Shown here in pieces: positions 969 through 14,111 of a stretch of 19,927 nt of DNA; the stretch's first letter is position 1; the number at the start of each line of letters is the position of its first letter. Where the stretch lies: the NCBI GenBank assembly GCA_903893625.1, contig CAITND010000151.1:71738-91664 (forward strand), written 5' to 3'. The notes below the pieces were generated by a model. That model did no database searches, had not been told where the DNA came from, and saw only the letters and a list, made by a program, of their open reading frames with translations. Position numbers and translations under genes: made by a program. The DNA is from an uncultured Oscillatoriales cyanobacterium (lineage in GTDB: Bacteria > Cyanobacteriota > Cyanobacteriia > Cyanobacteriales > Microcoleaceae).

Positions 969-3422
969 TTGATTTTTCATGATCCCTTTAATATTGAGCC
1001 TAAAATGACAGACGATTTTGATCTCGATCCAGTTTCCTCCCTCCATTCTATACCAACCCCAGAAGCGGAATCGGTTGTTTCTGAGGTGACAACGAATTCT
1101 TTAGAAAATATTGAGCAAATTCAAGCATTTCGAGCGCAAAAAATAAAAGAAATTTATCAAAGTTTACGTCCGGGTCAACAACAAATGGCAGACTGGAATG
1201 GGGGGCCATTAGCCATTTCTGCCGTTCCAGGTGCCGGGAAATCAACGGGAATGGCTTTTGCAGCCGCTTTAGCAATCGCTCGGTATCCCCTGCATTCTCA
1301 TCATCAATTAGTTATTGTTACATTTACCCGTTCAGCCGCCGCAAATATTCGCGCTAAAGTCAGTGAACAACTCAAAGCCATGCGATTACCATTAGGAGGA
1401 TTTGTTGTTCATACTTTGCATGGTTTAGCCTTGAATATTGCCTTAAAACATCCTGAATTATCGGGATTAAATTTAGATGATTTTACTTTAATTTTACCTA
1501 CTCCCAGTAATCGAATTACTCGCACCTGTGTTGAGCAGTGGATTGCTGCTAATCCTCGCCATTATCAACGGTTAATTGAAGGGGTTCAATTTGATGGAGA
1601 AGAAACAGAACGGTTAAGGCGACAATCGGTTTTACGGACAGAAGTTTTACCGAATTTAGCTTGGAAAGTGATTCAAGAAGCCAAAAGTTCAGGACTGCAA
1701 CCGGAAGATTTAAACCGAATTTCTGAACAAATTCCTGATGATTATGAGATTTTAAAAATAGCAGGGGGATTATATGAAAATTATCAAATTTTATTGCGAT
1801 CGCAGAATTTAATTGATTATGACGAAATGATTTTAGCTGCATTGCGAGTCTTAGAAAATCCAACAATTCGTCAAGTGTGGCAAAATCAATTCTTTGCTGT
1901 GTTTGAAGATGAAGCTCAAGATTCTACCCCTCTACAAAGTAAACTCTTGAGAATTTTAGCCCGTTCTTATGAATCAATTACTGATGATTTAGATACTTTA
2001 AATTTAGTTCGAGTCGGTGATCCCAATCAAGCGATTAACTCAACATTTACTCCGGCTGATCCGATTTATTTTCGTCGTTTTTGTAATGATTGTGAACAAT
2101 TAAAACGGTTAGCTACAATGGATCAGGCAGGACGAAGTAGTCGGATTATTATTGATGCAGCTAACTATATGTTATCCTGGGTAAATCGATCAAAATTAGC
2201 CGGAAATGAACAACCTTTTCGAGAGCAAATGATTCATTTAGTGGGATTTAATGACCAGCAATCAAATGCCAATCCTCCCGCATATAGTCGAGGTTTAGAA
2301 CTCTGTGAACCTGCGGATATTTATCAAACCGTTGAGTGGATTGTGGAACGGATTGTGACGATTCTTCAAGATGATCCAAAAGGGAAATTTGCTATTTTAC
2401 TTCGAGAAAATAAACAAGGAGAGTTTATTTCTAGCGTTTTGACTAATCCCCAATTGTATAATATTAAAATTCCTGAAGAATTTAAAACTAAAATTCGGAT
2501 TTATGATGCTTCCCAACAGGCGCGAAATTCTAAAATTCCAGCAGAAATTTTATCTTTATTACAATTTTTAGATCGTCCCCATTCACCGGATTATTTAAAA
2601 TTGGCGTTAAAAGTTTTAGGCGATCGCAATTTAATTCCTAATTTGGATTATAATAAAATTGCGATTCATCCTGAAGAATTTCTGTATCCTGGCCCCCTTG
2701 ATCCGCCACAATCGGAAGAAATTCGGAAATGTCGTTATTTTTGTTGTCAATTATTGCAAGCGCGTTTAGAACTTCCTCCCTATCAATTGATCTCCTTTTT
2801 AGCGTTATCCTTGGATTATGAAAGAACGGAATTAGCAACGGCTGATAAATTAGCAGAACGCATTGCTAAAAACACCTCTGGTAACCATTCAATGGGAACA
2901 ATTTTAGACGTTTTAAACGATATTGTTAGTTCTGAACGGTTTGAACCCGTTGATATTGATGATGAAGAAACCTCTAAAGAAAGTCCCTACACCCGTGAAG
3001 GTCAATTAACTCTAATTACCATGCACAAAGCCAAAGGATTAGATTGGGATTATGTGTTTCTTCCCTTTTTACAAGAGTCTACAATTCCCGGTAGTTTACG
3101 AGTTTTATCCCAAACAAAATTTCTAGGAGAATTAACCCTTTCTGAAGTCGCCCGCGCTCAAATTCGAGCCGCATCTCATGGACAAGAATTGATTCCCGAT
3201 GTCGTTACCGCTTGGGAACAAGCTAAGGATTTAAAAACCGCAGAAGAATATCGGTTACTCTATGTCGCTATAACGAGAGCTAAACGTTTTTTATGGATGT
3301 CTGCATCTCGTTTTTCTCCCTATAGTTGGCATAAACCCGAAAATCAGCAAGAACAAAAAGCCTGTCCAGTTTTTATTGCTTTAAAACAACAATTTCCTCA
3401 ACATTTTTTAGAGAAATTTTAA
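969..3422 (+). CDS. UvrD/REP/PcrA-family (superfamily 1) ATP-dependent DNA helicase
   Basis: Walker A in [12 protein letters not shown]. Motif Ia-like [14 protein letters not shown]. Motif [12 protein letters not shown]. Motif [15 protein letters not shown]. UvrD C-terminal domain motifs [22 protein letters not shown] and [18 protein letters not shown]. The N-terminus has a ~70-aa extension before the helicase core. An alternative start at M13 (nt 1005) is possible. Confidence 0.85.
1796..1803. repeat. HIP1 octamer GCGATCGC (one of 11 exact copies in the window)
   Basis: Exact GCGATCGC copies at about 1796, 2620, 4379, 6987, 7619, 7878, 10408, 13833, 14882, 15670 and 16758. None occurs between 10416 and 13832 or after 16766. 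HIP1 over-representation is a cyanobacterial hallmark. Confidence 0.8.
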
Positions 3423-6400
3423 AAAATAGAAGAAATAGTTTGTTCTATTTTGGGTTGAATTTCAGCATCAAATCCAGCAGATTTTAAGGCATCAAGAGTT
3501 GCTTCGGCATTCTGTATCCAGAAGTCACGACCCCAAGAAACCCCTTGATAATTCTGCTTAAATTCTCCTGTCACCTTAGCGACGATGGGAATATTAGCTT
3601 GTTGTTGATTACCAGATGATTGTTCTTTGAGGAGTGCCTGAAGGTTGTGTAAGGTTCGATCATCAACTTGTTGATATTTGATTTGAAGTAGGATCATGAT
3701 TTTAGGCTCCTCTAGAATACTATTAATCGATGAGTTAGACTCCTCTGGAATACTATTAATGGATTTAATTTCATCAACAAGAAGCTGTGTTTTATCTTCT
3801 TGTTTATCTACTTTTCCCACCAGTAAAACGATATTATTGGCAATGAGTAAAGGTTCATTTTCTTTATAAGTTCGAGGAAAAACCACCCCTTCTGCTTGTC
3901 CGCTTAAGTCTTCTAACTGCAAAAAAGCCATCCGTTCATTCTTTTTAGTGGTATGCAGTTTGATTCCACTTAGGATCACCAGAACTTTAACCGATGCTTT
4001 TGCTTTCTTTTCAGAAAGTTGACTGAGAGAAACTACATCGGCAATATTAATAGTTTTGGCAAAGCTTGTTAAGGGATGTTCAGAAACATAAAATCCTAGT
4101 AATTCTTTCTCAAACTGCAACTTTTCTTTAATTGAAAAATCTTCGACTTTAGGAGGTTTGGGCGCGTCTTCATGGGTTGTTTTTATATTAGTTTCTCCTC
4201 CTAAAATGTCAAAAATACTTTGTTGACCAATTTCTCGATCTTTCGCTTTATGTTGCGCCCAAGTCATCAATAGTTTAAGATGATCGATCGCTTGCTTACG
4301 GTTGGGGTTAAGTTTATCTAAAGCTCCACATTTAATTAAAGCTTCTAAAGCCCGACTATTAACCATTTGTAAATTTATGCGATCGCATAAATCGGGAAAA
4401 CTCTTAAATTCTCCTCCTTCTTGACGCACGGCTAATAAATGTTCTATAGCACCTTCTCCCACATTTTTAATTGCAGAAAGTCCGAAAATAATACTCTGAT
4501 CTGAGGGGGTAAAATCCATACCCGAAAGATTAATATCTGGGGGGATCACCTTAATTCCCAAAGATTTTTGACAAGATTCAATATATTTTTGGATCTTATC
4601 CGTATCCCCACTATTTGCACTTAATAAAGCCGCCATATATTCAACTGGATAATTTGCTTTTAAATAAGCAGTTTCATAGGTGACATAAGCATAGGCCATT
4701 GAATGGGATTTGTTAAAGCAATATTCAGCGAATTGAAGCATCTGTTCAAACAATTTTTCAGCGATTTTTTGCTGAACTCCATTTTTAGTGGCCCCATCAA
4801 TAAATGTCTCCCGTTGCTTATTCATTTCTTCCGCTTTTTTCTTCCCCATTGCTCGTCTTAATAAATCCGCTTGACCTAAAGAATAGCCCGCTAAATCTTG
4901 AGCTAATTTCATAATTTGTTCTTGAAAACATAAAATTCCATAGGTTTCTTTTAAAATTGGCTCTAACAGAGGATGGTCATATCTAATTTCATCCCGTCCA
5001 TGTTTACGATCAATAAATTGTGGAATTAAACCCGCATCTAAGGGCCCCGGACGATACAGCGCTAAAATAGAAGAAATATCATCCAAACAGGAAGGCTTGA
5101 GTTTTTTAACAATATCTATCATCCCAGAAGATTCTAACTGAAAGATGCCATCTAAATCGCCTTTTTCTAGTAATTTATAAGTTTTCAGTACATCTTCAGG
5201 TAACTTTTTATGGGTTTTATAGGCATCTTGGGCTTTTCTTTCAATATCAGAAGGCAATTTTTCAGGATCAATTTTATGGCCATATATTTCTTCAATATAA
5301 TTAACTGCTTTTTGAATCATGGTTAAATTTCTTAACCCTAAAAAATCCATTTTTAATAATCCAACCGCCTCTAAATCCTCCATATAATATTGAGTAATAA
5401 CTGCCCCATCATTATTGCGCTGTAGGGGAACAATTTCGTCTAAAGACTGTTTAGAAATCACCACACCCGCCGCATGAACCCCGAAGGTTTTGTTCGTTCC
5501 TTCGATGCGAATTGCCATATCTAGCCATTGTTTAACACTAATGGTATCGACTTCTTCCCCCGCCTCATTATGAACCGGAACATTTTCATTATCATAAGCT
5601 TCTTTGAATTCCGGTGCGGGACTTTGATCGGAAATCATAACTTTTAAACGGGCGGGTTTTCCCCGTGAAACCGGAATTAATTTCGCCATTTGATCGGATT
5701 TTTTATAGGAAATTCCTAATACCCTGGCGACATCTTTTAACACCGCTTTAGAGGTCATACGGTTAAACGTAATAATTTGAGCCACTTTATCCGCTCCATA
5801 TTTTTCGGTGACATATTTAATCATTTCATCTCGTCTTTCAATACAGAAATCCGTATCAATATCAGGCATAGATTTTCGTTCAGGATTTAAAAATCTTTCA
5901 AATAATAAACCATGATAAACTGGATCAATATTGGTAATTTTTAGGGCATAAGCTACTAATGATCCCGCCGCCGAACCTCGTCCTGGCCCGACGGCAATAT
6001 TGTGATCTCTGGCAAATTTAATATAATCCCAAACGACTAAAAAGTAAGTCGAAAACCCCATCTTTTGCATCATTTTGAGTTCATATTCTAAGCGCTCTTT
6101 ATAGATGGGTTTAATCTCGCTTCTGGTTTTGGCATTCATCCGTTCTAATAACCCTTTCCAGGTGACTTCTTCTAAATAAGTATCAGCCGTATGATCAGGG
6201 GGAATGGGATAGTCAGGGATGCGGGGTTCCCCTAAAATACCGGAATAGGGTTCAACTTTATTGGCAACTTCTACCGTATTATTAATCGCTTCTTGAATGA
6301 TATCATCCGATAAATGATCTCGAAATAATTGCGCCATTTCTTCAGCAGATTTTAAATATTCTGTACCGCTATAGCGCATTCGTTTTTCTTCACTAATTAA

Positions 6401-7096
6401 TTTTTGGGTATTAATACAAAGTAAGGCATCATGGGCTTCTACATCATTACAGGAGATAAAATGGGAGTCATTAGTGGCGACAAGTTTAATATTTAATTCT
6501 CGACTAATTTTAACAATTTCAACATTCACCATCCGATCTTCTGGAGAACCATGATCTTGAATTTCTAAATAAAAATCCTCTCCAAATACCCTTTGATACC
6601 ATTGAGCGACTTCCCGCGCCTTCTCGTAGAGTCCTTGTAAAATTGCTTGGGGAATTTCTCCCCCTAAACAAGCACTGGTAACAATTAACCCTTCATGATA
6701 TTGTTCTAATAGTTCTTTATTAATACAGGGACGTGCAAAAATGCCTTTTCCTTGAAACCCTTGCAAGTGTGAAATGGTGGTTAATTTAACTAAGTTTTTA
6801 TAGCCTTGGCTATTTTTAGCTAAGACCACTTGATGATATTTTCTTCGTTTCTTATCCTTCTGATCCTGAACTTTAACATCACCATTAATCACATACATCT
6901 CATTGCCAATAATGGGTTTTATCCCTTTATTTCGGCAAGTTTTAATTAACTCAATTGCCCCATACATAACTCCGTGATCGGTGATAGCGATCGCAGGCAT
7001 TCCTAACTCTAATGCTCGGTCAATTAATTGCGGTAATTGAGATGCACCATCGAGTAAACTATAATCACTATGAATATGTAAACCTACAAAAGACAT
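3419..7096 (-). CDS. dnaE: DNA polymerase III alpha subunit (DnaE), contiguous and intein-free
   Basis: 1225 aa. N-terminal PHP domain [50 protein letters not shown] is canonical DnaE. The polymerase core has [19 protein letters not shown] and [19 protein letters not shown]; the OB-fold C-terminus is present. The 3' end overlaps the helicase gene by 4 nt (convergent). Confidence 0.95.
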
Positions 7097-7142: not shown

Positions 7143-8906
7143 ATGATTGACTTCCGTAATACTAACACAGTTTGGGCTTCTGTATTGGTGGAAACTTTAG
7201 CCAAATTAGGATTAAAAACTGCCATTCTTTGTCCCGGTTCCCGTTCTACCCCTTTAACAATTGCTTTTGCTCAACATTCTAGCATTGAAACCATCCCAAT
7301 TTTAGATGAACGTTCCGCTTCTTTTTTTGCTTTGGGAATTGCTAAAAAATCGGGTTTACCGACGGTTTTAGTTTGTACTTCAGGAACCGCAGGAGCTAAT
7401 TTTTATCCCGCTATTATAGAAGCCAAAGAAAGCCGAGTTACTCTATTAATTTTAACCGCAGATCGCCCCCCTGAATTAAGAGATTGTCATGCTGGACAAA
7501 CCATTGATCAGCTTAAATTATATGGGAATTATCCTAACTTTCAAACCGAATTAAGCATCCCTAGTTTGGATTTAGGATTGTTAGGTTATTTGCGACAAAC
7601 ATTAATTTATGCTTGGGAGCGATCGCAACTTCCTATTCCCGGTGTTGTCCATCTTAATATTCCCTTTCGTGATCCTTTACATCCCGTTTATCAACCGGAA
7701 GTAGAAGATTTAAAAGCCGTATTTCCTGATGATTTTTTCCAAAAAATTAATCCTGTAAAAACTTCAATTTTTTCTGGTTTTGATCTTTATGATTATTTTA
7801 AACAGTGGTATAATTATTCTCAAGGAATTATTATTGCGGGTGTAGCTCAACCTCAAAATTCCGAGGGTTATTGTCAAGCGATCGCCCAACTTGCTAAACA
7901 ATTAAATTATCCCGTCTTAGCAGAGGGATTATCTCCCGTTAGGAATTATTCTAACCTTAATCCCTATTTGATCTCAACCTATAATTTAATCCTGAGAAAT
8001 TCAACCTTAGCCGAAAAACTCGCCCCTCAAATTGTGATTCAAATTGGAGATTTACCCACCAGCAAAACCCTCAGAAACTGGTTAGAACAACTACAACCAG
8101 ATTATTTTATTCTTGACCCAACCTATCAAAATTTAGATGGGTTACATGGAAAAACAACCCATTTGAGGATATCTATCGAACAGCTATCAGAACAAATTCA
8201 TCAGAGAAAAAATCCACAACCTCTTAACTCAACTCAATCTGAATTATATTGTCATCTTTGGTGTAAATTAGAAGCGCAAGCGAGAACCGCTATTGACCAA
8301 AAATTAGAACCCATTAATCTATTAATAGAACCTAAAATTGCTGGGTTACTCTCCCAAATTTTGCCTAAAAATACACCGATTTTTATTGCTAATAGTATGC
8401 CCGTGAGAGATGTAGAATTTTTTTGGAGTCCGAATACATTAAATATTCAACCTTTTTTTAATCGAGGTGCAAATGGTATCGATGGAACCTTATCCACTGC
8501 ATTAGGAATTGCCCATCATCAACAAAGTAGTATTTTATTAACAGGAGATTTAGCATTACTTCATGATACAAATGGATTTTTAATTAGGAATAAATTTATC
8601 GGACATTTAACAATTATTTTAATTAATAATAATGGAGGTGGAATTTTTGAAATGTTACCCATTTCTCAATTTGATCCTCCTTTTGAGGACTATTTTGCTA
8701 CCCCTCAAAATATTAACTTTGCTCAATTAGCGACAACTTATAATATTGAGTATGAACAAATTCAATCTTGGGAACAGTTAAAACAACGATTAAATCCCCT
8801 TCCTGAGCAAGGAATTAGGATTTTAGAAATTCCAACAAATCGCAAAATTGATGCAAAATGGAGGCAAAAATATCTACAGCAATTCGCCAATCAACTAAAA
8901 TTATAG
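7143..8906 (+). CDS. menD: 2-succinyl-5-enolpyruvyl-6-hydroxy-3-cyclohexene-1-carboxylate (SEPHCHC) synthase MenD, ThDP-dependent (phylloquinone pathway)
   Basis: 587 aa. N-terminus NTVWASVLVETLAKLGLKTAILCPGSRSTPLTIAF. Then TSGTAGANFYPAIIEAKESRVTLLILTADRPPELRDCHAGQTIDQ. C-terminal ThDP-binding region GDLALLHDTNGF...LINNNGGGIF. This is the typical MenD architecture and length. Confidence 0.9.
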   Translation: MIDFRNTNTVWASVLVETLAKLGLKTAILCPGSRSTPLTIAFAQHSSIETIPILDERSASFFALGIAKKSGLPTVLVCTSGTAGANFYPAIIEAKESRVTLLILTADRPPELRDCHAGQTIDQLKLYGNYPNFQTELSIPSLDLGLLGYLRQTLIYAWERSQLPIPGVVHLNIPFRDPLHPVYQPEVEDLKAVFPDDFFQKINPVKTSIFSGFDLYDYFKQWYNYSQGIIIAGVAQPQNSEGYCQAIAQLAKQLNYPVLAEGLSPVRNYSNLNPYLISTYNLILRNSTLAEKLAPQIVIQIGDLPTSKTLRNWLEQLQPDYFILDPTYQNLDGLHGKTTHLRISIEQLSEQIHQRKNPQPLNSTQSELYCHLWCKLEAQARTAIDQKLEPINLLIEPKIAGLLSQILPKNTPIFIANSMPVRDVEFFWSPNTLNIQPFFNRGANGIDGTLSTALGIAHHQQSSILLTGDLALLHDTNGFLIRNKFIGHLTIILINNNGGGIFEMLPISQFDPPFEDYFATPQNINFAQLATTYNIEYEQIQSWEQLKQRLNPLPEQGIRILEIPTNRKIDAKWRQKYLQQFANQLKL

Positions 8907-10267
8907 AAACCGGGTTTCTGAAGTTGCCAAACTCTCCGACGTTTTTGACCTGTTGGAATTGAGGGAAATTGATCAAGAAATACAATTTCAGGGATATGAC
9001 AGTGGAGACGTTCAAAAAGCGATTTTAGCGATTTAATAACCCCTTCTTGAATCATATCTTTTTCGCCATTTCTAACTTTCAAAGCAACTTCTATCCGATT
9101 TAAACTTAACTGCATCACTTGATAATCCTCAATATCCGCAGAAACCATAACAATTGCTCTGCGAATAAAATCAGGAAAAATTGTCACCCATTCACCATGA
9201 CTAGATTGATGAGGGAGATAAAAAATATCATCCTGTCGTCCTTCTATCTGTTCAATAGCCATTAACACTGACCCACACTGACATGGTGTTTTACGCTCTA
9301 CTAAAATATCATTCAGTTTATAACGGATAATCGGTTGCGTTGTTCGTCTAAAATCGGTTATAATCGGCATAAATCTGAATTTATCTTCATCTAAATATTC
9401 TTTTTGAATTACAACACTATCCTCATTGAGATGTAAGGTTCCATAATCACAGGTATAACCCAAAAATCCTTCTGTACATTGATAAACTTGATGAATAATT
9501 TGATTAAAAACTCCGCTAATATAATCTGCATCTAAAGGATCAAGCACTTCAGCAACGGAAACTATTTTTTTTGGTGATATCTTTAAAGTCCCTTGTGCTT
9601 GAGATTCCGCTAATAATCGTAATAAAGAAGCAGGAGCGACTAAAATTGTGGGTTGATACTGATTTAATCGTTGAATATGATTCGTTATTGGTTCTAATAA
9701 ATCAAAAAAATTAAACTGCAAACGCCGACTTTTTACCGTTTCATATAATCGACTATTTGCCCTTAGAAAAAATGCAATTTTCTCAGGAAATAAAATAAAA
9801 TTAGGTAATAATTTGGCTAAAATTGTTCCAGCCCAAATCCATTCTTCTTGAGGACTAACTAAAAATAACCCTCGATTTCCACTCGTTCCCGTCGATAGTC
9901 CAACGGTATATCCGCGTAAATTAGAGCTAAAATCTCGCGTTTGTTCAGCTTTCAATGCAATTTCAAAAGCTTCTGAGGCTGAAATTTTAACGGTATTAAG
10001 TTGATCAAAATTTTCCATCATTTTCGCTTTATCAATAATTGGAAAATTTTGCCAATCTTGAATTTCTAAACCTTGATAATACTGTTGATAAAAGGGAGAT
10101 CGAGGCAAAATCTTATTTAAAAAGTTTTGAACCTGTTGATTTTGCCATTTTAATAACTGTTCTCGACTATTGAAATGTCTAAAATATTTTGTTTTTAAAT
10201 AGTGATTAAGAATGATTAATGTACGTTTCATTTTAATAATATACCTCGTAGGCTGTGTTTTACTCAC
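8891..10267 (-). CDS. Adenylate-forming enzyme, PaaK / coenzyme F390 synthetase / CapK / GH3-like superfamily (function unknown)
   Basis: 458 aa. Phosphate-binding loop YTVGLSTGTSGNRGLFLVS resembles the SSGTTGKP motif of PaaK/F390-synthetase-like enzymes. It does not fit the ANL (MenE) A3 signature. The likely true start is M13 (MKRTLIILNHYL..., around nt 10231). The 3' end overlaps menD by 16 nt (convergent). Confidence 0.55.
   Translation of the reverse strand: MSKTQPTRYIIKMKRTLIILNHYLKTKYFRHFNSREQLLKWQNQQVQNFLNKILPRSPFYQQYYQGLEIQDWQNFPIIDKAKMMENFDQLNTVKISASEAFEIALKAEQTRDFSSNLRGYTVGLSTGTSGNRGLFLVSPQEEWIWAGTILAKLLPNFILFPEKIAFFLRANSRLYETVKSRRLQFNFFDLLEPITNHIQRLNQYQPTILVAPASLLRLLAESQAQGTLKISPKKIVSVAEVLDPLDADYISGVFNQIIHQVYQCTEGFLGYTCDYGTLHLNEDSVVIQKEYLDEDKFRFMPIITDFRRTTQPIIRYKLNDILVERKTPCQCGSVLMAIEQIEGRQDDIFYLPHQSSHGEWVTIFPDFIRRAIVMVSADIEDYQVMQLSLNRIEVALKVRNGEKDMIQEGVIKSLKSLFERLHCHIPEIVFLDQFPSIPTGQKRRRVWQLQKPGFYNFS
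8904..8925. repeat. Palindromic short repeat copy 1: TAGAAACCGGGTTTCTGAAGTT (core AGAAACC-G-GGTTTCT)
   Basis: 15-nt palindrome with 7-nt arms. It overlaps the menD stop codon (TAG 8904-8906) and the 3' end of the convergent adenylate-forming enzyme gene. A 22-of-24-nt near-identical copy lies at 15377-15398. Confidence 0.6.
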
Positions 10268-10523
10268 CTAGAACTCTGTTGTATTAAATAATGTTGCTGG
10301 TGCGTGGACTATGCTTATGTAGCTTACAATAATTACATCTTAATTTGCGTAAATTTACGGTTTCTTTTTATGATTTTATCCGCTATTCTAAAATTTAGTA
10401 AGTTTGAGCGATCGCTCCTTATGAACTATTGATCAATATCCTTACCTGCTTTTTTTCTATATCACCTTCTCTCTATCCTGTTTTCCATTTACCTCTAATA
10501 AAAATAACTTCAACTTCGTTCCT

Positions 10524-11729
10524 ATGAATACACAACCGTTTTGGCTTCCTTTGGTTAGATCTTTAATTCTTCTTCCGCTTGGAATTCCTGGCTTTTTAAT
10601 CCTACCATTTCTAATAGATATTTTTATAAGTATATCTGGCTCAACTCGATTTATTTGGTTATCAAGATTAGGTATTTTTACTATTTTATGTGTATTAATA
10701 ACAATAGTTATATGCTCATTATTTTATCTTTTGAGTCAAGTTTTAATAGGTAAATGGCTGCCTAAGTTTAATTTTTTATGGGAAGGAACAAAAGCAACAT
10801 TTATAATTTTTATTAATTCTCTAATTACTTGGAATATTCTCTTTAAATTTCAAGAATTAAATTGTAAATTTTTTTATGATTTATCTGAAGAAGCAGAGAT
10901 TTCATATTGCATGGGAATGAAAACTAATATAGTAATTTCTAATATGCTAGAAAATCCTACTAGCTTAAGTGCATTATTCGTTTTGATAATTTGGCTTATG
11001 CTCGCAACTATATTCTACCGACTAGAGAATAATAGTAATCAATCTAAAAATAATTTATCAAAAACTATTGTATTTTTCCTAGTAGGTTTAATTATTAGTT
11101 CAGGCATTAAACTCTCGCAAATTACTCCATCACAGAATGTAAATTCTGATGCTTCTGTTACTGAAAACACTGAACAAACGTCTTCCTCAAATGTTCAAAC
11201 GACAGAAGAAATTGTACCAGAAAATAATGAAGAAAATCAGGATGAAACTAATTATTTTCGAGAGGCCATTGAAACAGCAACAAAAGCTGCTAATTTAGCA
11301 CAAACTGCTAAAACTTCCGATGAATGGAAAACTGTTGCAGATGAATGGAAAAATGCTATTGAATTAATGCAATCTGTTCCTGATTCTTCGGAAAATTATG
11401 TGCTTGCTCAAGATCGGGTTCAACAATATCAAAATAATTTACAGTATAGTCAAAAAAAGGCTAATCCCCAGCCTAAAAATCCATCCGTAAAACATCCAGA
11501 AATTTATTTTCAACAAGGGTTAAATGAAGCTAATACTGCTGCATTTTTAACACAAACCTCTAAATCAAAAGATGAATGGGAATTTGTAGCGAGTCAATGG
11601 GAAAAAGCAATTGAAAATATGAAAGCGGTTTCGACTTCTGATGTTAATTATGGCAAAGCACAACAACGGGTTATTCAGTATCAAAAAAATCTGGATTATG
11701 CGCGTTTAGCTGCTAGTCGTGCTAAATAA
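10524..11729 (+). CDS. Multi-pass membrane protein with a duplicated ~70-aa C-terminal soluble module (no recognised family)
   Basis: 401 aa. Residues 1-200 contain ~5 hydrophobic helices (LILLPLGIPGFLILPFLIDIFISI, IFTILCVLITIVICSLFYLL, ATFIIFINSLITWNILF, LSALFVLIIWLMLATIF, IVFFLVGLIISSGI). Residues ~244-317 and ~328-401 are a tandem repeat at ~45% identity (YFREAIETATKAANLAQTAKTSDEWKTVADEWKNAIELMQSV...AQDRVQQYQNNLQY vs YFQQGLNEANTAAFLTQTSKSKDEWEFVASQWEKAIENMKAV...AQQRVIQYQKNLDY). DNA is very AT-rich (~25-30% GC) compared with its neighbours. Confidence 0.75.
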   Translation: MNTQPFWLPLVRSLILLPLGIPGFLILPFLIDIFISISGSTRFIWLSRLGIFTILCVLITIVICSLFYLLSQVLIGKWLPKFNFLWEGTKATFIIFINSLITWNILFKFQELNCKFFYDLSEEAEISYCMGMKTNIVISNMLENPTSLSALFVLIIWLMLATIFYRLENNSNQSKNNLSKTIVFFLVGLIISSGIKLSQITPSQNVNSDASVTENTEQTSSSNVQTTEEIVPENNEENQDETNYFREAIETATKAANLAQTAKTSDEWKTVADEWKNAIELMQSVPDSSENYVLAQDRVQQYQNNLQYSQKKANPQPKNPSVKHPEIYFQQGLNEANTAAFLTQTSKSKDEWEFVASQWEKAIENMKAVSTSDVNYGKAQQRVIQYQKNLDYARLAASRAK

Positions 11730-11803
11730 TAAAACTAGCTAGACAACTTCTGACCTCAATGTGCTAAAGTTAAAATAGATTAGGGCTATTTTTACAGCAA
11801 AAT

Positions 11804-12880
11804 TTGATTAATATGCTTGAAAATATAGAAATTCAAAATTTTAGATGTTTTGAAGATACTAAAATTTTAGGGTTTAAACGAGTGAATTTAATCGGGGGTA
11901 AAAATAACGCTGGAAAGACAGCTTTTTTAGAAGCTTTACTGTTGCATAACTTTCCTCGCCCTAAAAGCATAATTGAACTTAAAAGAATTAGGAGAGAGTC
12001 TTCAGAGATTTCAAAATCAAGACCTGAAAAGACTTGGGATAATTTTTTTTTAGAGCAAAGTCATCAAGGAGAAATAAAAATTAGTGGCAAATATTCAGAA
12101 AATTGTAAAACGGTAGAGCTTTCTGTTTCGGATACAATTAACTCAGATTTTTTTGAAGATCAAAAAGATATAAAAAAATTGATTGACTTTATTTCTCAAA
12201 ATGAATCAGTAACATCACTTAATATTAAAGTTACTCAAAATCAAGAGAAAATATCTGAATCTTCGGTAATTGCAAGCTCAAACGGAATAATTTCAGTCAA
12301 TGGTTCAGACTCAACTGATATACCTATTATTCCCTCTGGTTTAAGAATGTCTAATAAAGAGTTAGCTGAATCTTATGATAAAGCTCGTTTAGATGAAAAA
12401 GATGGTGAAGTTTTAAAATTATTACAAATTCTTGATTCATCAATTCAAGAGGTCGATAGTTTTTCTATTGGTGAACCTACTTTATATTTAAGAAGCATAA
12501 ATAAACGTCGCTTACCTATTTCACTCTATGGAGATGCTATTATTCGGGCTACAACTATGATTTTAAAATTAATCAATAATAATCATAAAATCTTGTTAAT
12601 TGATGAAATAGAAAATGGCATACACTATACTAATCAACGAGAATTTTGGCGAACTTTATTTCGACTATCAACAGAACTAGATACGCAAATTTTTGCCACA
12701 ACCCACAGTTTAGAAATGATTCAAGCTTTTGGAGATGTAGGCTTAGAAATGGATGAAGAAATGAGTGCTTATTTTGAACTAGCAAGACATCCTAAAACTA
12801 ACGACATTATAGGAATTAAAAGGGATGTAGAAACTTTAAAATATGCTTTAGAACATGGAAAAGGAGTTAGAGGTGAGTAA
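11804..12880 (+). CDS. ABC-type (AAA_15/AAA_21, RecF/SMC/OLD-like) ATPase, PARIS AriA-like defence ATPase
   Basis: 358 aa. N-terminus IEIQNFRCFEDTKILGFKRVNLIGGKNNAGKTAFLEALLL is the classic N-terminal beta-strand plus Walker A (GKNNAGKT) of RecF/OLD-like ABC ATPases. C-terminus has Walker B KILLIDEIENGIH and an H-loop FATTHSLEMI. Very AT-rich (first 60 nt ~20% GC). The stop overlaps the next gene. Confidence 0.8.
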   Translation: MINMLENIEIQNFRCFEDTKILGFKRVNLIGGKNNAGKTAFLEALLLHNFPRPKSIIELKRIRRESSEISKSRPEKTWDNFFLEQSHQGEIKISGKYSENCKTVELSVSDTINSDFFEDQKDIKKLIDFISQNESVTSLNIKVTQNQEKISESSVIASSNGIISVNGSDSTDIPIIPSGLRMSNKELAESYDKARLDEKDGEVLKLLQILDSSIQEVDSFSIGEPTLYLRSINKRRLPISLYGDAIIRATTMILKLINNNHKILLIDEIENGIHYTNQREFWRTLFRLSTELDTQIFATTHSLEMIQAFGDVGLEMDEEMSAYFELARHPKTNDIIGIKRDVETLKYALEHGKGVRGE

Positions 12881-13571
12881 TCTTTTAATTGTGGAAAGTA
12901 AAAATGATAAATTTTTTCTTAAAGCTCTAATTAAAGAGCTAAATTATGATATTGAGATTGATGCTCCTATTTGTATTGATGACTATGAATGTTTAGAAGG
13001 ATTAAGTGAAAAAAGGCTAGTAGGGGCTTTAAAGTCCTTGTTAGCTGATATCCAGAAAAGACAAATTAGTAAAATTGGAATTGTGATCGATATTGATCAA
13101 TATTCTAAGCAAGAGCGTTTACAATTTATTAATCAATGTTTAGGGCAGGTTTTTCCTTTAAATCATGAATTTTCTGATATATCACAATTCATAACTGTCA
13201 ATATTCCTGACTATGATTCTATTGAAATAGCTTGTTATTTTACCCATGTCGAAGGTCAAGGAGAGTTAGAAACTGCCTTAAAACTTATTAAAACCCAAGA
13301 ATCTCCTTATGCAGATTGTTTAGACAGTTGGCGAACCTGTTTAAAAAGTAATAATGAATCGATTAGTGATAAAGACTATGATAAATTTTGGATTAGTAAT
13401 TATATTCGATTTGATACTTGTTCTGGTTCAGAACCCAAGCAAGCAGAACGAAAATGCAGCATGAAAAATTTTGAATATATTATGGAAAATAAAAAAGATA
13501 TCTGGAATTTTAATCACCCTGTTCTCGATGAGATCAAAGAATTTTTGCAGCTTTTCGTTGCTGAGAGTTGA
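12855..13571 (+). CDS. Toprim-domain (DUF4435/OLD-nuclease-like) protein, PARIS AriB-like putative effector nuclease
   Basis: 238 aa. N-terminal LLIVESKNDKFFLKALI matches the Toprim beta1 'ilVEG.tD..f' motif with the catalytic Glu. IGIVIDIDQY provides the Toprim DxD motif. Overlaps the upstream ATPase gene by 26 nt. An alternative start GTG at ~12873-12875 is preceded by AAGGAG and overlaps the ATPase stop as GTGAGTAA, consistent with translational coupling. Confidence 0.7.
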   Translation: MEKELEVSNLLIVESKNDKFFLKALIKELNYDIEIDAPICIDDYECLEGLSEKRLVGALKSLLADIQKRQISKIGIVIDIDQYSKQERLQFINQCLGQVFPLNHEFSDISQFITVNIPDYDSIEIACYFTHVEGQGELETALKLIKTQESPYADCLDSWRTCLKSNNESISDKDYDKFWISNYIRFDTCSGSEPKQAERKCSMKNFEYIMENKKDIWNFNHPVLDEIKEFLQLFVAES

Positions 13572-13635
13572 TCAAATAGAAAATAGTGGGGCTGGGGAGG
13601 AGTATTTCTGTTATCATTAAAAGCAGAATTCATCA

Positions 13636-13653
13636 GGTGCATGGGGATGCACC
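13636..13653. terminator. Hairpin between convergent Toprim gene and psaK (possible weak psaK terminator)
   Basis: GGTGCAT-GGGG-ATGCACC: perfect 7-bp stem with a 4-nt loop. On the minus strand it is followed, after ~10 nt, by CTTTTAA. There is no clean U-tract on the plus strand. Confidence 0.3.
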
Positions 13654-13669
13654 CTACATCTGAAATGAG

Positions 13670-13930
13670 TTAAATTACTCCTAAACTGGATAATCCTAAA
13701 ATCACACCCGCCCCTAAAATATGACCAAAACTTGTGGTTGCTAAAACCGCAGGTAAGCCAAACCCACCGAACATATTAGGTGAGGGTAATTGAGGGCCAG
13801 CATTAGGCTGTTGGATCGATAATTTACCAATGGCGATCGCTGCAATATTGGATACAATCATTACAATAGCGATGGTAGGACTCCAGGCGTGAGTAACGGG
13901 GGTAGCAGCAGTGACGGCTAAAAGCATCAT
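13670..13930 (-). CDS. psaK: Photosystem I reaction centre subunit PsaK
   Basis: 86 aa, two transmembrane helices. WSPTIAIVMIVSNIAAIAIGK...PNMFGGFGLPAVLATTSFGHILGAGVILGLSSLG matches the cyanobacterial PsaK consensus (WSP..., FGGFG, ATTxFGHILGxG). Higher GC and C-ending codons are typical of a highly expressed gene. Confidence 0.9.
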   Translation of the reverse strand: MMLLAVTAATPVTHAWSPTIAIVMIVSNIAAIAIGKLSIQQPNAGPQLPSPNMFGGFGLPAVLATTSFGHILGAGVILGLSSLGVI

Positions 13931-14111
13931 GGAATTATCTCCTAAAGTTTTTTAAACTGTAACCAATGGAAATTAATCGTTATAGCTAAGATGTTTTACC
14001 AAACAAAGGGAATTGATTTTCGTCCTTGTAGCAATACTTAACATTTTCTCCCTAAAATTGCTATCCTAGTTTAAAGAAACGGCCCGACTCAGAGAAACCA
14101 TTGATTTTAAT

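Follow-up and report, generated by a model that had tools for sequence, protein, structure and literature searches.

The split ABC ATPase and Toprim nuclease systems form a supergroup that takes in OLD, Gabija, PARIS, AbiL and MADS3-4. Classes 1 and 2 of OLD include P2 Old, Ts OLD, Bp OLD and the Gabija protein GajA, and class 2 has a UvrD-like partner, GajB. This report concerns a two-gene locus of the same general architecture in a stretch of 19,927 nucleotides (nt) from an uncultured Oscillatoriales cyanobacterium (contig CAITND010000151.1, positions 71,738 to 91,664), referred to throughout as the window. Gene A encodes an ABC ATPase, and gene B, which overlaps its 3' end on the same strand, encodes a small Toprim-fold protein of family DUF3226. 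The best explanation, to which a probability of about 60% is given, is that A and B make up a single self-contained operon of the split type, joining an AbiLi/PDC-M38A-like ATPase to a DUF3226 protein and corresponding to the candidate system PDC-M38, in which the product of gene A would restrain that of gene B.

PARIS is made up of an AAA15 ABC ATPase (AriA) and a DUF4435 (PF14491) Toprim nuclease (AriB); an AriA hexamer sequesters AriB, and binding of Ocr frees AriB, which then dimerises and cleaves tRNA-Lys (PMC11464382, PMC12409363). AriA is 53-55 kDa and AriB 35 kDa, and the IS1 and IS2 insertions of AriA are helical and build the hexameric propeller that holds three copies of AriB (PMC11464382). 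AbiL, an experimentally shown abortive-infection system of Lactococcus lactis, has been grouped with PARIS as an ABC ATPase and Toprim system (PMC13064643), and its effector AbiLii is of the RloB type (PF13707; PMC11464382). A tree of AAA15/21 ATPases covers those associated with DUF4435 (PARIS), RloB (AbiL), DUF4276 (MADS3-4) and TOPRIM-Old, and does not include DUF3226 (PMC11464382). The PDC entries of PADLOC, to which PDC-M38 belongs, are 145 candidates whose genes were picked out for lying inside BREX, DISARM or type I restriction-modification (RM) loci (Payne et al. 2024 preprint, 10.1101/2024.01.29.577857).

The gene pair and its products

Two forward-strand open reading frames (ORFs) lie at 11804-12880 (358 amino acids, aa, from a TTG) and 12855-13571 (238 aa from an ATG). 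Their coordinates, lengths and every motif quoted in the original prediction, which had described them as a PARIS-like module, were reproduced by re-translation at the exact positions. Homologs of each protein number in the hundreds, the lowest E-values for the two being 1e-137 and 1e-227, and the ORF pair is therefore far beyond chance. The features of the pair and its junction are as follows.

11813..12880, forward strand: gene A, ABC ATPase (AAA_15/AAA_21; AbiLi / PDC-M38A type), 355 aa, 40.5 kDa
11804, forward strand: alternative in-frame TTG start of gene A, the first possible start but the less likely one
12873..13571, forward strand: gene B, DUF3226 Toprim-fold protein (PDC-M38B type), 232 aa, 27.0 kDa
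12855, forward strand: alternative in-frame ATG start of gene B, which would give 238 aa
12861..12866, forward strand: Shine-Dalgarno-like AAGGAG within the 3' end of gene A, 6 nt upstream of the gene B GTG
12873..12880, forward strand: start/stop overlap GTGAGTAA (gene B GTG start, gene A TAA stop), translational coupling

Gene A most likely starts at the ATG at 11813, because the exact 355-aa protein is present in the database, the full-length proteins listed in its 90% cluster, 13 in number and belonging to Planktothrix rubescens, P. agardhii, P. mougeotii and PCC 11201, all have 355 aa, and nucleotide homology of the window to one relative (locus L003) picks up exactly at 11813. The junction reads AAGGAG-TTAGAG-GTGAGTAA, so that the two genes overlap by 26 nt from the gene B ATG or by 8 nt from the GTG that the Shine-Dalgarno-like sequence precedes, just as the original prediction had it. 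The GTG at 12873 is the most likely start of gene B, since a GTG 8 nt before the gene A stop recurs in about 75 of 88 loci, with the identical octamer in 57 and a GGAG or GAGG upstream in 79, and since the majority of its database homologs are 228-232 aa long.

The linkage of the two genes is almost without exception. In a sample of 82 loci (80 species genomes and two look-ups), a gene A homolog lies directly upstream of gene B on the same strand in 81, mostly with the 8-nt overlap, and the sole unpaired locus lies on a contig of 1 kb, which leaves too short a stretch upstream. This adjacency and the conserved overlap mark A and B as one translationally coupled unit, in agreement with the earlier claim of coupling. 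Overlap and Shine-Dalgarno sequence are kept in cyanobacteria and in other phyla at about 28-31% identity (as GTGAATAA or GTGAATAG); in an Acinetobacter pair at 34% identity the genes stand 5 nt apart. Identity of the two proteins also falls in step, from 93% (A) and 90% (B) to Planktothrix tepida, the nearest named relative of both, to about 57% for each to Microcoleus. The source is accordingly a Planktothrix, and the cyanobacterial host that had been proposed is confirmed. None of the 150 best-scoring representatives of the B family (54-312 aa, the full-length ones about 215-265 aa) is fused to an ATPase.

The module has a GC content of 0.300 against 0.361 for the window; it is thus AT-rich, as noted before, if only moderately and not extremely so. 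A scan of 11500-14100 found 14 promoter-like sites where 10.8 were expected and no terminators, and these signals consequently do not define the boundaries of the operon.

Gene A matches Pfam AAA_15 (1.6e-24) and AAA_21 (3.2e-15), generic assignments that are common to PARIS, OLD, Gabija, AbiL, MADS and Septu. Its best PADLOC match is AbiLi (PDLC02336, 9.7e-58, profile positions 1-340 of 340), and PDC-M38A (PDLC04611) is matched at 3.5e-55 by residues 4-352 over profile positions 1-379 of 383. Matches to the two PADLOC 'AriA' models, at 9.5e-26 and 1.2e-20, lie well below both; these models appear to be generic, because their profile lengths (373 and 304) correspond to those of Pfam AAA_15 (374) and AAA_21 (304). 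AriA is a distant structural match, and a search of the PDB with the gene A family profile returned it at E=0.018 only, in the Walker A region only. The sequence elements of gene A are listed below.

11894..11920, forward strand: Walker A / P-loop GGKNNAGKT, residues 28-36 (from the translation)
12053..12322, forward strand: variable beta-rich insertion, residues ~81-170 (from conservation, predicted strands and indels)
12515..12538, forward strand: ABC signature-like PISLYGDA, residues 235-242 (from the translation)
12593..12625, forward strand: Walker B and D-loop region LLIDEIENGIH, with D264 and E265 (from the translation)
12695..12709, forward strand: H-loop ATTHS, with H298 (from the translation)

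Judged by its residues, the ABC catalytic set of gene A is complete and conserved. In 24 homologs, G29, N31, N32, G34, K35 and T36 of the Walker A motif, P235, S237, L238, G240, D241 and A242 of the signature-like motif, D264, E265, E267, N268, G269 and H271 of the Walker B and D-loop region, and A295 to S299 of the H-loop are all invariant. The insertion is the least conserved part of the protein (0.40-0.53, against 0.77 in the core), carries many indels in the homolog alignment and has predicted strands at residues 88-94, 97-106, 134-142, 145-155 and 158-162; it is a candidate sensor or partner surface.

The C-terminal RGE of gene A (window 12866-12880) is likewise invariant in the 24 homologs and overlaps the first codons of gene B (M-S-N). 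At the Acinetobacter locus (L083, around 11990-12003) the genes do not overlap, yet A still ends in CGT GGT GAG TAA, so that both the protein sequence and the overlap seem to constrain the tail.

Gene B matches Pfam DUF3226 at 1.5e-28 over nearly its full length, and no match to DUF4435, RloB, DUF4276 or Toprim in Pfam was found at E<=1. Of the Pfam matches that the original prediction had put forward for checking, those of gene A to AAA_15 and AAA_21 were thus obtained, and that of gene B to DUF4435 or Toprim was not. In PADLOC, B matches PDC-M38B (PDLC04623) at 2.9e-12 over the N-terminal 84 of 219 profile positions and mad4 at E 0.008 at its N-terminus only; it has no AriB match even at E<=1 and no AbiLii match. 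The same picture holds for the family, which was sampled as 58 diverse relatives at 26-55% identity to B: all 58 match DUF3226 and 57 match PDC-M38B, and DUF4435 is matched by none of the 58. Scattered weak matches are to OLD-like_TOPRIM (15 relatives), RloB (5), OLD-like_TOPRIM_1 (3), DUF4276 (2) and Toprim (1) and, among the PADLOC models, to mad4 (17), AriB (3) and AbiLii (2). The motifs of gene B, all read from the translation, are the following.

12885..12908, forward strand: Toprim strand 1 and acidic motif LIVESKND (E8, D12)
13077..13097, forward strand: Toprim DxD motif GIVIDID (D73, D75)
13260..13274, forward strand: GELET motif (G130, E131, E133)
13317..13340, forward strand: CX6C pair (C149, C156) in the helical C-terminal half

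The fold of B and its similarity to OLD nucleases relate it to the Toprim superfamily, and the conserved glutamate after strand 1 and the DxD are both present. E8 and D12 are kept in 58 of 58 relatives, D73 in 58 and D75 in 57. By this signature B is a Toprim-superfamily protein of family DUF3226 with an intact acidic catalytic centre, and a putative nuclease. The GELET motif, in which 53 of the 58 relatives keep G130 and 54 have E or D at position 133, is likely to supply an additional metal or substrate ligand. Consistent with these assignments, the earlier description of an ABC (AAA_15/AAA_21) ATPase encoded apart from a small Toprim-fold protein is borne out by Pfam, motif and fold evidence.

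The cysteine pair is near-invariant (C149 in 56 of 58 and C156 in 57) and has no counterpart in a homolog from a Klebsiella plasmid that is described below; two further cysteines, C183 (32 of 58) and C195 (36 of 58), are kept in the cyanobacterial clade only. Because B covers only 84 of the 219 PDC-M38B positions, the cyanobacterial proteins are best seen as a clade with a diverged C-terminal half that carries the CX6C pair.

The closest solved structure to B is PH0156 of Pyrococcus horikoshii (PDB 2P62; 17% identity), a structural-genomics protein with no assigned function or partner; searches of the PDB with the sequence of B and with the family profile gave nothing beyond a 22-residue N-terminal match to PH0156. 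The same structure is the top HHpred match of lactococcal AriB (Grafakou et al., PMC11381338). Since PH0156 resembles both B and AriB, DUF3226 and DUF4435 are probably sister families, and this kinship explains why B had at first been taken for a DUF4435 protein.

Relation to PDC-M38 and to described systems

PDC-M38 is the closest counterpart in composition, gene A matching PDC-M38A over its full length and gene B matching PDC-M38B, with the two genes adjacent on the same strand. This assignment is one of profile matches. The pair had been called uncharacterised, and this is right, PDC-M38 being a catalogued candidate family.

The likeness to PARIS, which is a class 4 OLD-like system, lies in the split between an AAA_15/21 ABC ATPase and a small Toprim two-metal nuclease, in the tight linkage of the genes, in the resemblance of both AriB and B to PH0156 and, perhaps, in a shared logic of sequestration and release. 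The differences are more specific. AriB is a DUF4435 protein and B is not; AriA has the helical IS1 and IS2, whereas the insertion of A is short and beta-rich, and the AriA chains in the PDB, with 464 residues, exceed A by about 100; and at 40.5 and 27.0 kDa both proteins are smaller than AriA and AriB, as had been pointed out. Membership in the AriA/AriB type, which the original prediction had favoured, is for these reasons not upheld, and A is instead of the AbiLi/PDC-M38A kind.

AbiL shares with the locus a two-gene arrangement in which an ABC ATPase accompanies a Toprim-like effector, and AbiLi is the best ATPase model for A; the effectors differ, AbiLii being of the RloB type and B a DUF3226 protein that matches neither AbiLii nor RloB. 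In OLD and GajA, ATPase and Toprim are fused in one polypeptide, whereas here they are encoded by two separate ORFs.

Three further candidates were rejected. For Gabija, the UvrD-like gene of the window (969-3422) is about 8.4 kb away past several unrelated genes, and A and B are unfused. For MADS (MAD3/MAD4), the NCBIfam MAD3 score of 37.8 bits compares with a cut-off of 420, and DUF4276 is found in 2 of the 58 relatives of B; no methyltransferase lies near the pair in the window. For RecF/RecR, the TIGR00611 recF model matches residues 5-48 only, with 36.2 bits where the cut-off is 172, B has no RecR match, and the distribution is patchy.

A portable two-gene cassette and its possible roles

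A homologous pair occurs on a plasmid of Klebsiella pneumoniae (NZ_CP024435.1, locus L088), a non-mobilizable ColE1-type replicon of 4,167 bp with only four annotated genes: Rop, a helix-turn-helix protein, an 'ATP-binding protein' and a 'DUF3226 domain-containing protein'.

NZ_CP024435.1 437-2184, reverse strand: Klebsiella ATPase and DUF3226 pair (from annotation and profile matches)

The plasmid ATPase matches AbiLi at 1.9e-58 and PDC-M38A at 7.9e-44, and the small protein gives a full-length match to PDC-M38B (3.9e-11) and, when aligned with the B family, an hhalign probability of 96.9% over 200 columns. Matches to A-like proteins were found in 130 Klebsiella plasmid records. In a metagenome-assembled genome of Desulfonema limicola (L016, 6148-9788), two modules of an ATPase and a small protein stand in tandem, each with the 8-nt overlap. 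The first is a PDC-M38-like pair; in the second, a HEC-01A-like ATPase (2.1e-45) is joined by a protein of 238 aa without a Pfam match, which carries an N-terminal Toprim-like motif, 'LILVCEGPHD'. The hhalign probability between the B family and this second small protein is 4.7%, over the N-terminal motif only. The Klebsiella and Desulfonema contexts point to a function in genetic conflict.

The B family comprises 308 clusters at 50% identity among 1.84 billion representatives. A relative is present in at least 214 of 185,579 species genomes, a lower bound that is biased to cyanobacteria by the narrower alignment used for this count. The best 80 genomes are almost all cyanobacterial (Microcoleus, Planktothrix, Coleofasciculus, Microcystis, Nostoc/Anabaena, Pseudanabaena, Crocosphaera and Spirulina), with a small remainder that includes Desulfonema and Saprospiraceae. 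The family is rare and patchy, and the module, a solitary insert in unrelated genomic contexts as well as the main cargo of a small plasmid, is a portable two-gene cassette.

Its function is most likely that of a defence or addiction module in which the ATPase would control the nuclease. By analogy with PARIS, OLD and Gabija, the A protein, probably a dimer or higher oligomer, would bind B, made in fixed ratio, and keep it inactive. A phage or mobile-element cue would be sensed by A, perhaps via the hypervariable beta-rich insertion, and B would be released or activated, a step in which ATP binding or hydrolysis by A would take part. The freed B may then cut nucleic acid of the host or of the invader by two-metal catalysis, and its activity would stop growth and abort infection, arresting the cell or the invader, or kill cells that lose the module.

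Several observations weigh against reading the pair as the defence operon PDC-M38. The candidate is itself a computational one only, and a search of the paper library used here for DUF3226, PF11536 and PDC-M38 found no paper that mentions them. PDCs were found within BREX, DISARM or type I RM loci, whereas the pair here is solitary among housekeeping genes, and the window B covers 84 of the 219 PDC-M38B positions. Neighbours vary by genus, are overwhelmingly housekeeping or signalling genes and give no defence-island signature. Among 108 flanking proteins from 18 loci, 7 are Uma2 (PDC-S03) and 2 are DrmMI/type IIG-like, with no clear enrichment for defence genes. No defence neighbours were seen at three distant loci or at the Acinetobacter locus, and phage and large-plasmid records hold essentially no such module; apart from the Klebsiella plasmid, the search of these collections with B returned Acinetobacter records only. 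Within Planktothrix the pair occupies one locus across several species and looks stabler than many defence genes.

As for what surrounds the pair elsewhere, the distant loci are flanked by genes of the kind of aconitase, ribosomal protein S16, a radical-SAM enzyme, DinB and glyQS, and the large proteins that follow B in two loci (L014 and L054) are WD40-repeat proteins. The Acinetobacter 'plasmid' record is 4.09 Mb long, and it and the 240 kb 'phage' records look chromosomal; the neighbourhood that was inspected in the 'phage' records contains housekeeping genes.

The same solitary contexts, and the mini-plasmid, fit equally well a toxin-antitoxin-like module that serves the addiction or stability of mobile DNA without a dedicated antiphage role, B being the toxin nuclease and A the antitoxin. 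A two-gene insert that stands alone between housekeeping genes in many lineages, a conserved fixed-ratio translational coupling, and the presence of the pair as the main load of a non-mobilizable ColE1 plasmid of 4.2 kb that is very common all speak for such a module, and PARIS itself behaves as a type II toxin-antitoxin pair. A 355-aa ATPase with a fully conserved catalytic set would nevertheless make a costly antitoxin, and wherever the function of a related ATPase-Toprim pair is known, it is defence. A role in addiction and one in defence are compatible rather than mutually exclusive; a role in addiction to the exclusion of defence is rather unlikely.

It is distinctly unlikely that the genes form a housekeeping or accessory pair for DNA repair or recombination, a counterpart of RecF and RecR (ABC ATPase and Toprim, respectively) or of Rad50 and a nuclease. 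Such a role is disfavoured because the family is much rarer and patchier than core repair would allow, its neighbours are not conserved across genera, and its status as small-plasmid cargo is hard to reconcile with it. The match of A to the RecF model, with 36 bits where 172 are required, is confined to the Walker A region, and dnaE and the helicase gene of the window, 4.7-8.4 kb off, belong to other transcription units.

Orthology to the lactococcal abortive-infection system AbiL (AbiLi with AbiLii) is very unlikely, even though that system too pairs an ABC ATPase with a Toprim protein and AbiLi is the best PADLOC match, over the whole profile, of A and of its Klebsiella and Acinetobacter homologs. 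The effector decides otherwise: B matches neither AbiLii nor RloB, these are matched by 2 and 5 of the 58 relatives respectively, all weakly, and DUF3226 and PDC-M38B are found in 58 and 57. A true divergent PARIS, with AriA and AriB orthologs that sense anti-restriction proteins (such as Ocr) and cleave tRNA-Lys, shares the overall architecture and is scarcely credible given the family of B and the insertion of A.

The PDC-M38 reading can be taken further, tentatively and with the odds against the fuller version. Pairs of an ATPase and a DUF3226 protein may represent a distinct fifth lineage of split ABC-Toprim systems, beside PARIS (DUF4435), AbiL (RloB), MADS (DUF4276) and the fused OLD, with a trigger of their own and a target other than that of AriB. 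Stoichiometry might be set by the overlap, and the CX6C pair might be redox- or metal-sensitive in cyanobacteria; the module would be common in Planktothrix, Microcystis, Microcoleus and Dolichospermum, and would be what maintains the ubiquitous 4.2 kb Klebsiella plasmid.

The locus overturns nothing, since its architecture is a familiar one and the family has already been catalogued as a computational candidate. If functional, it would add an experimentally untouched DUF3226-effector branch to the ABC ATPase and Toprim immune supergroup, and one that is present in ecologically important bloom-forming cyanobacteria, in which phage defence is poorly charted. The homolog on the Klebsiella mini-plasmid offers a directly testable enterobacterial model, in which phage defence, plasmid stability or both, and the target of the Toprim protein, can be addressed.

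Surroundings of the pair in Planktothrix relatives

In the window the pair is accompanied by psaK, an NDH-2-type oxidoreductase, a HAD protein, a thiamine pyrophosphate (TPP) enzyme and dnaE. Compared with four close relatives (P. tepida, L002; L003; L004; and PCC 11201, L005), the homology blocks break at the edges of the module, at 11813 and 13576. In L003 the stretch corresponding to window 8848-11812, with its two upstream ORFs, is missing, and the TPP-enzyme gene lies about 170 nt from gene A. On the other side, the homology block stops at 13576, five bases past the gene B stop, in all four relatives. Past 13576/13577, toward psaK, P. tepida, L003 and L004 have an extra 1.65-1.76 kb that the window lacks; the insertion in P. 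tepida codes for a protein of 532 aa that weakly matches FAD-oxidoreductase (DAO). In PCC 11201 the DNA downstream of B is unrelated and carries a YebC-like gene. Given insertions in three relatives and unrelated DNA in the fourth, the spot just after gene B is a recurrent rearrangement point.

The upstream stretch at window 8848-11812 has a low GC content (0.28-0.31), and its two ORFs have no convincing Pfam match.

8891-10267, reverse strand: ORF in the low-GC stretch, 458 aa
10524-11729, forward strand: ORF in the low-GC stretch, 401 aa, with N-terminal hydrophobic segments

A repeat of about 55 aa occurs twice in the 401-aa ORF (…DEWKTVADEWKNAIELMQ… and …DEWEFVASQWEKAIENMK…).

Further upstream, dnaE (window 3419-7096, reverse strand, 1225 aa) runs uninterrupted across the classic cyanobacterial DnaE intein site, with the extein junction near 4712-4714 at ...FAEY|CFNKSH... 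The close relatives, at about 88-90% nucleotide identity, differ at or near this site: in P. tepida dnaE is an 889-aa ORF whose match ends at residue 795, in the manner of a split intein; in L003 it is a 1365-aa ORF, about 140 aa longer at the intein site; and PCC 11201 has a larger insertion of about 1.3 kb near it. A UvrD/REP-family helicase gene (969-3422, forward strand, 817 aa) converges on dnaE, the two 3' ends overlapping by 4 nt. This arrangement of helicase and dnaE is syntenic in L003, and in P. tepida a Uma2 gene adjoins dnaE instead.

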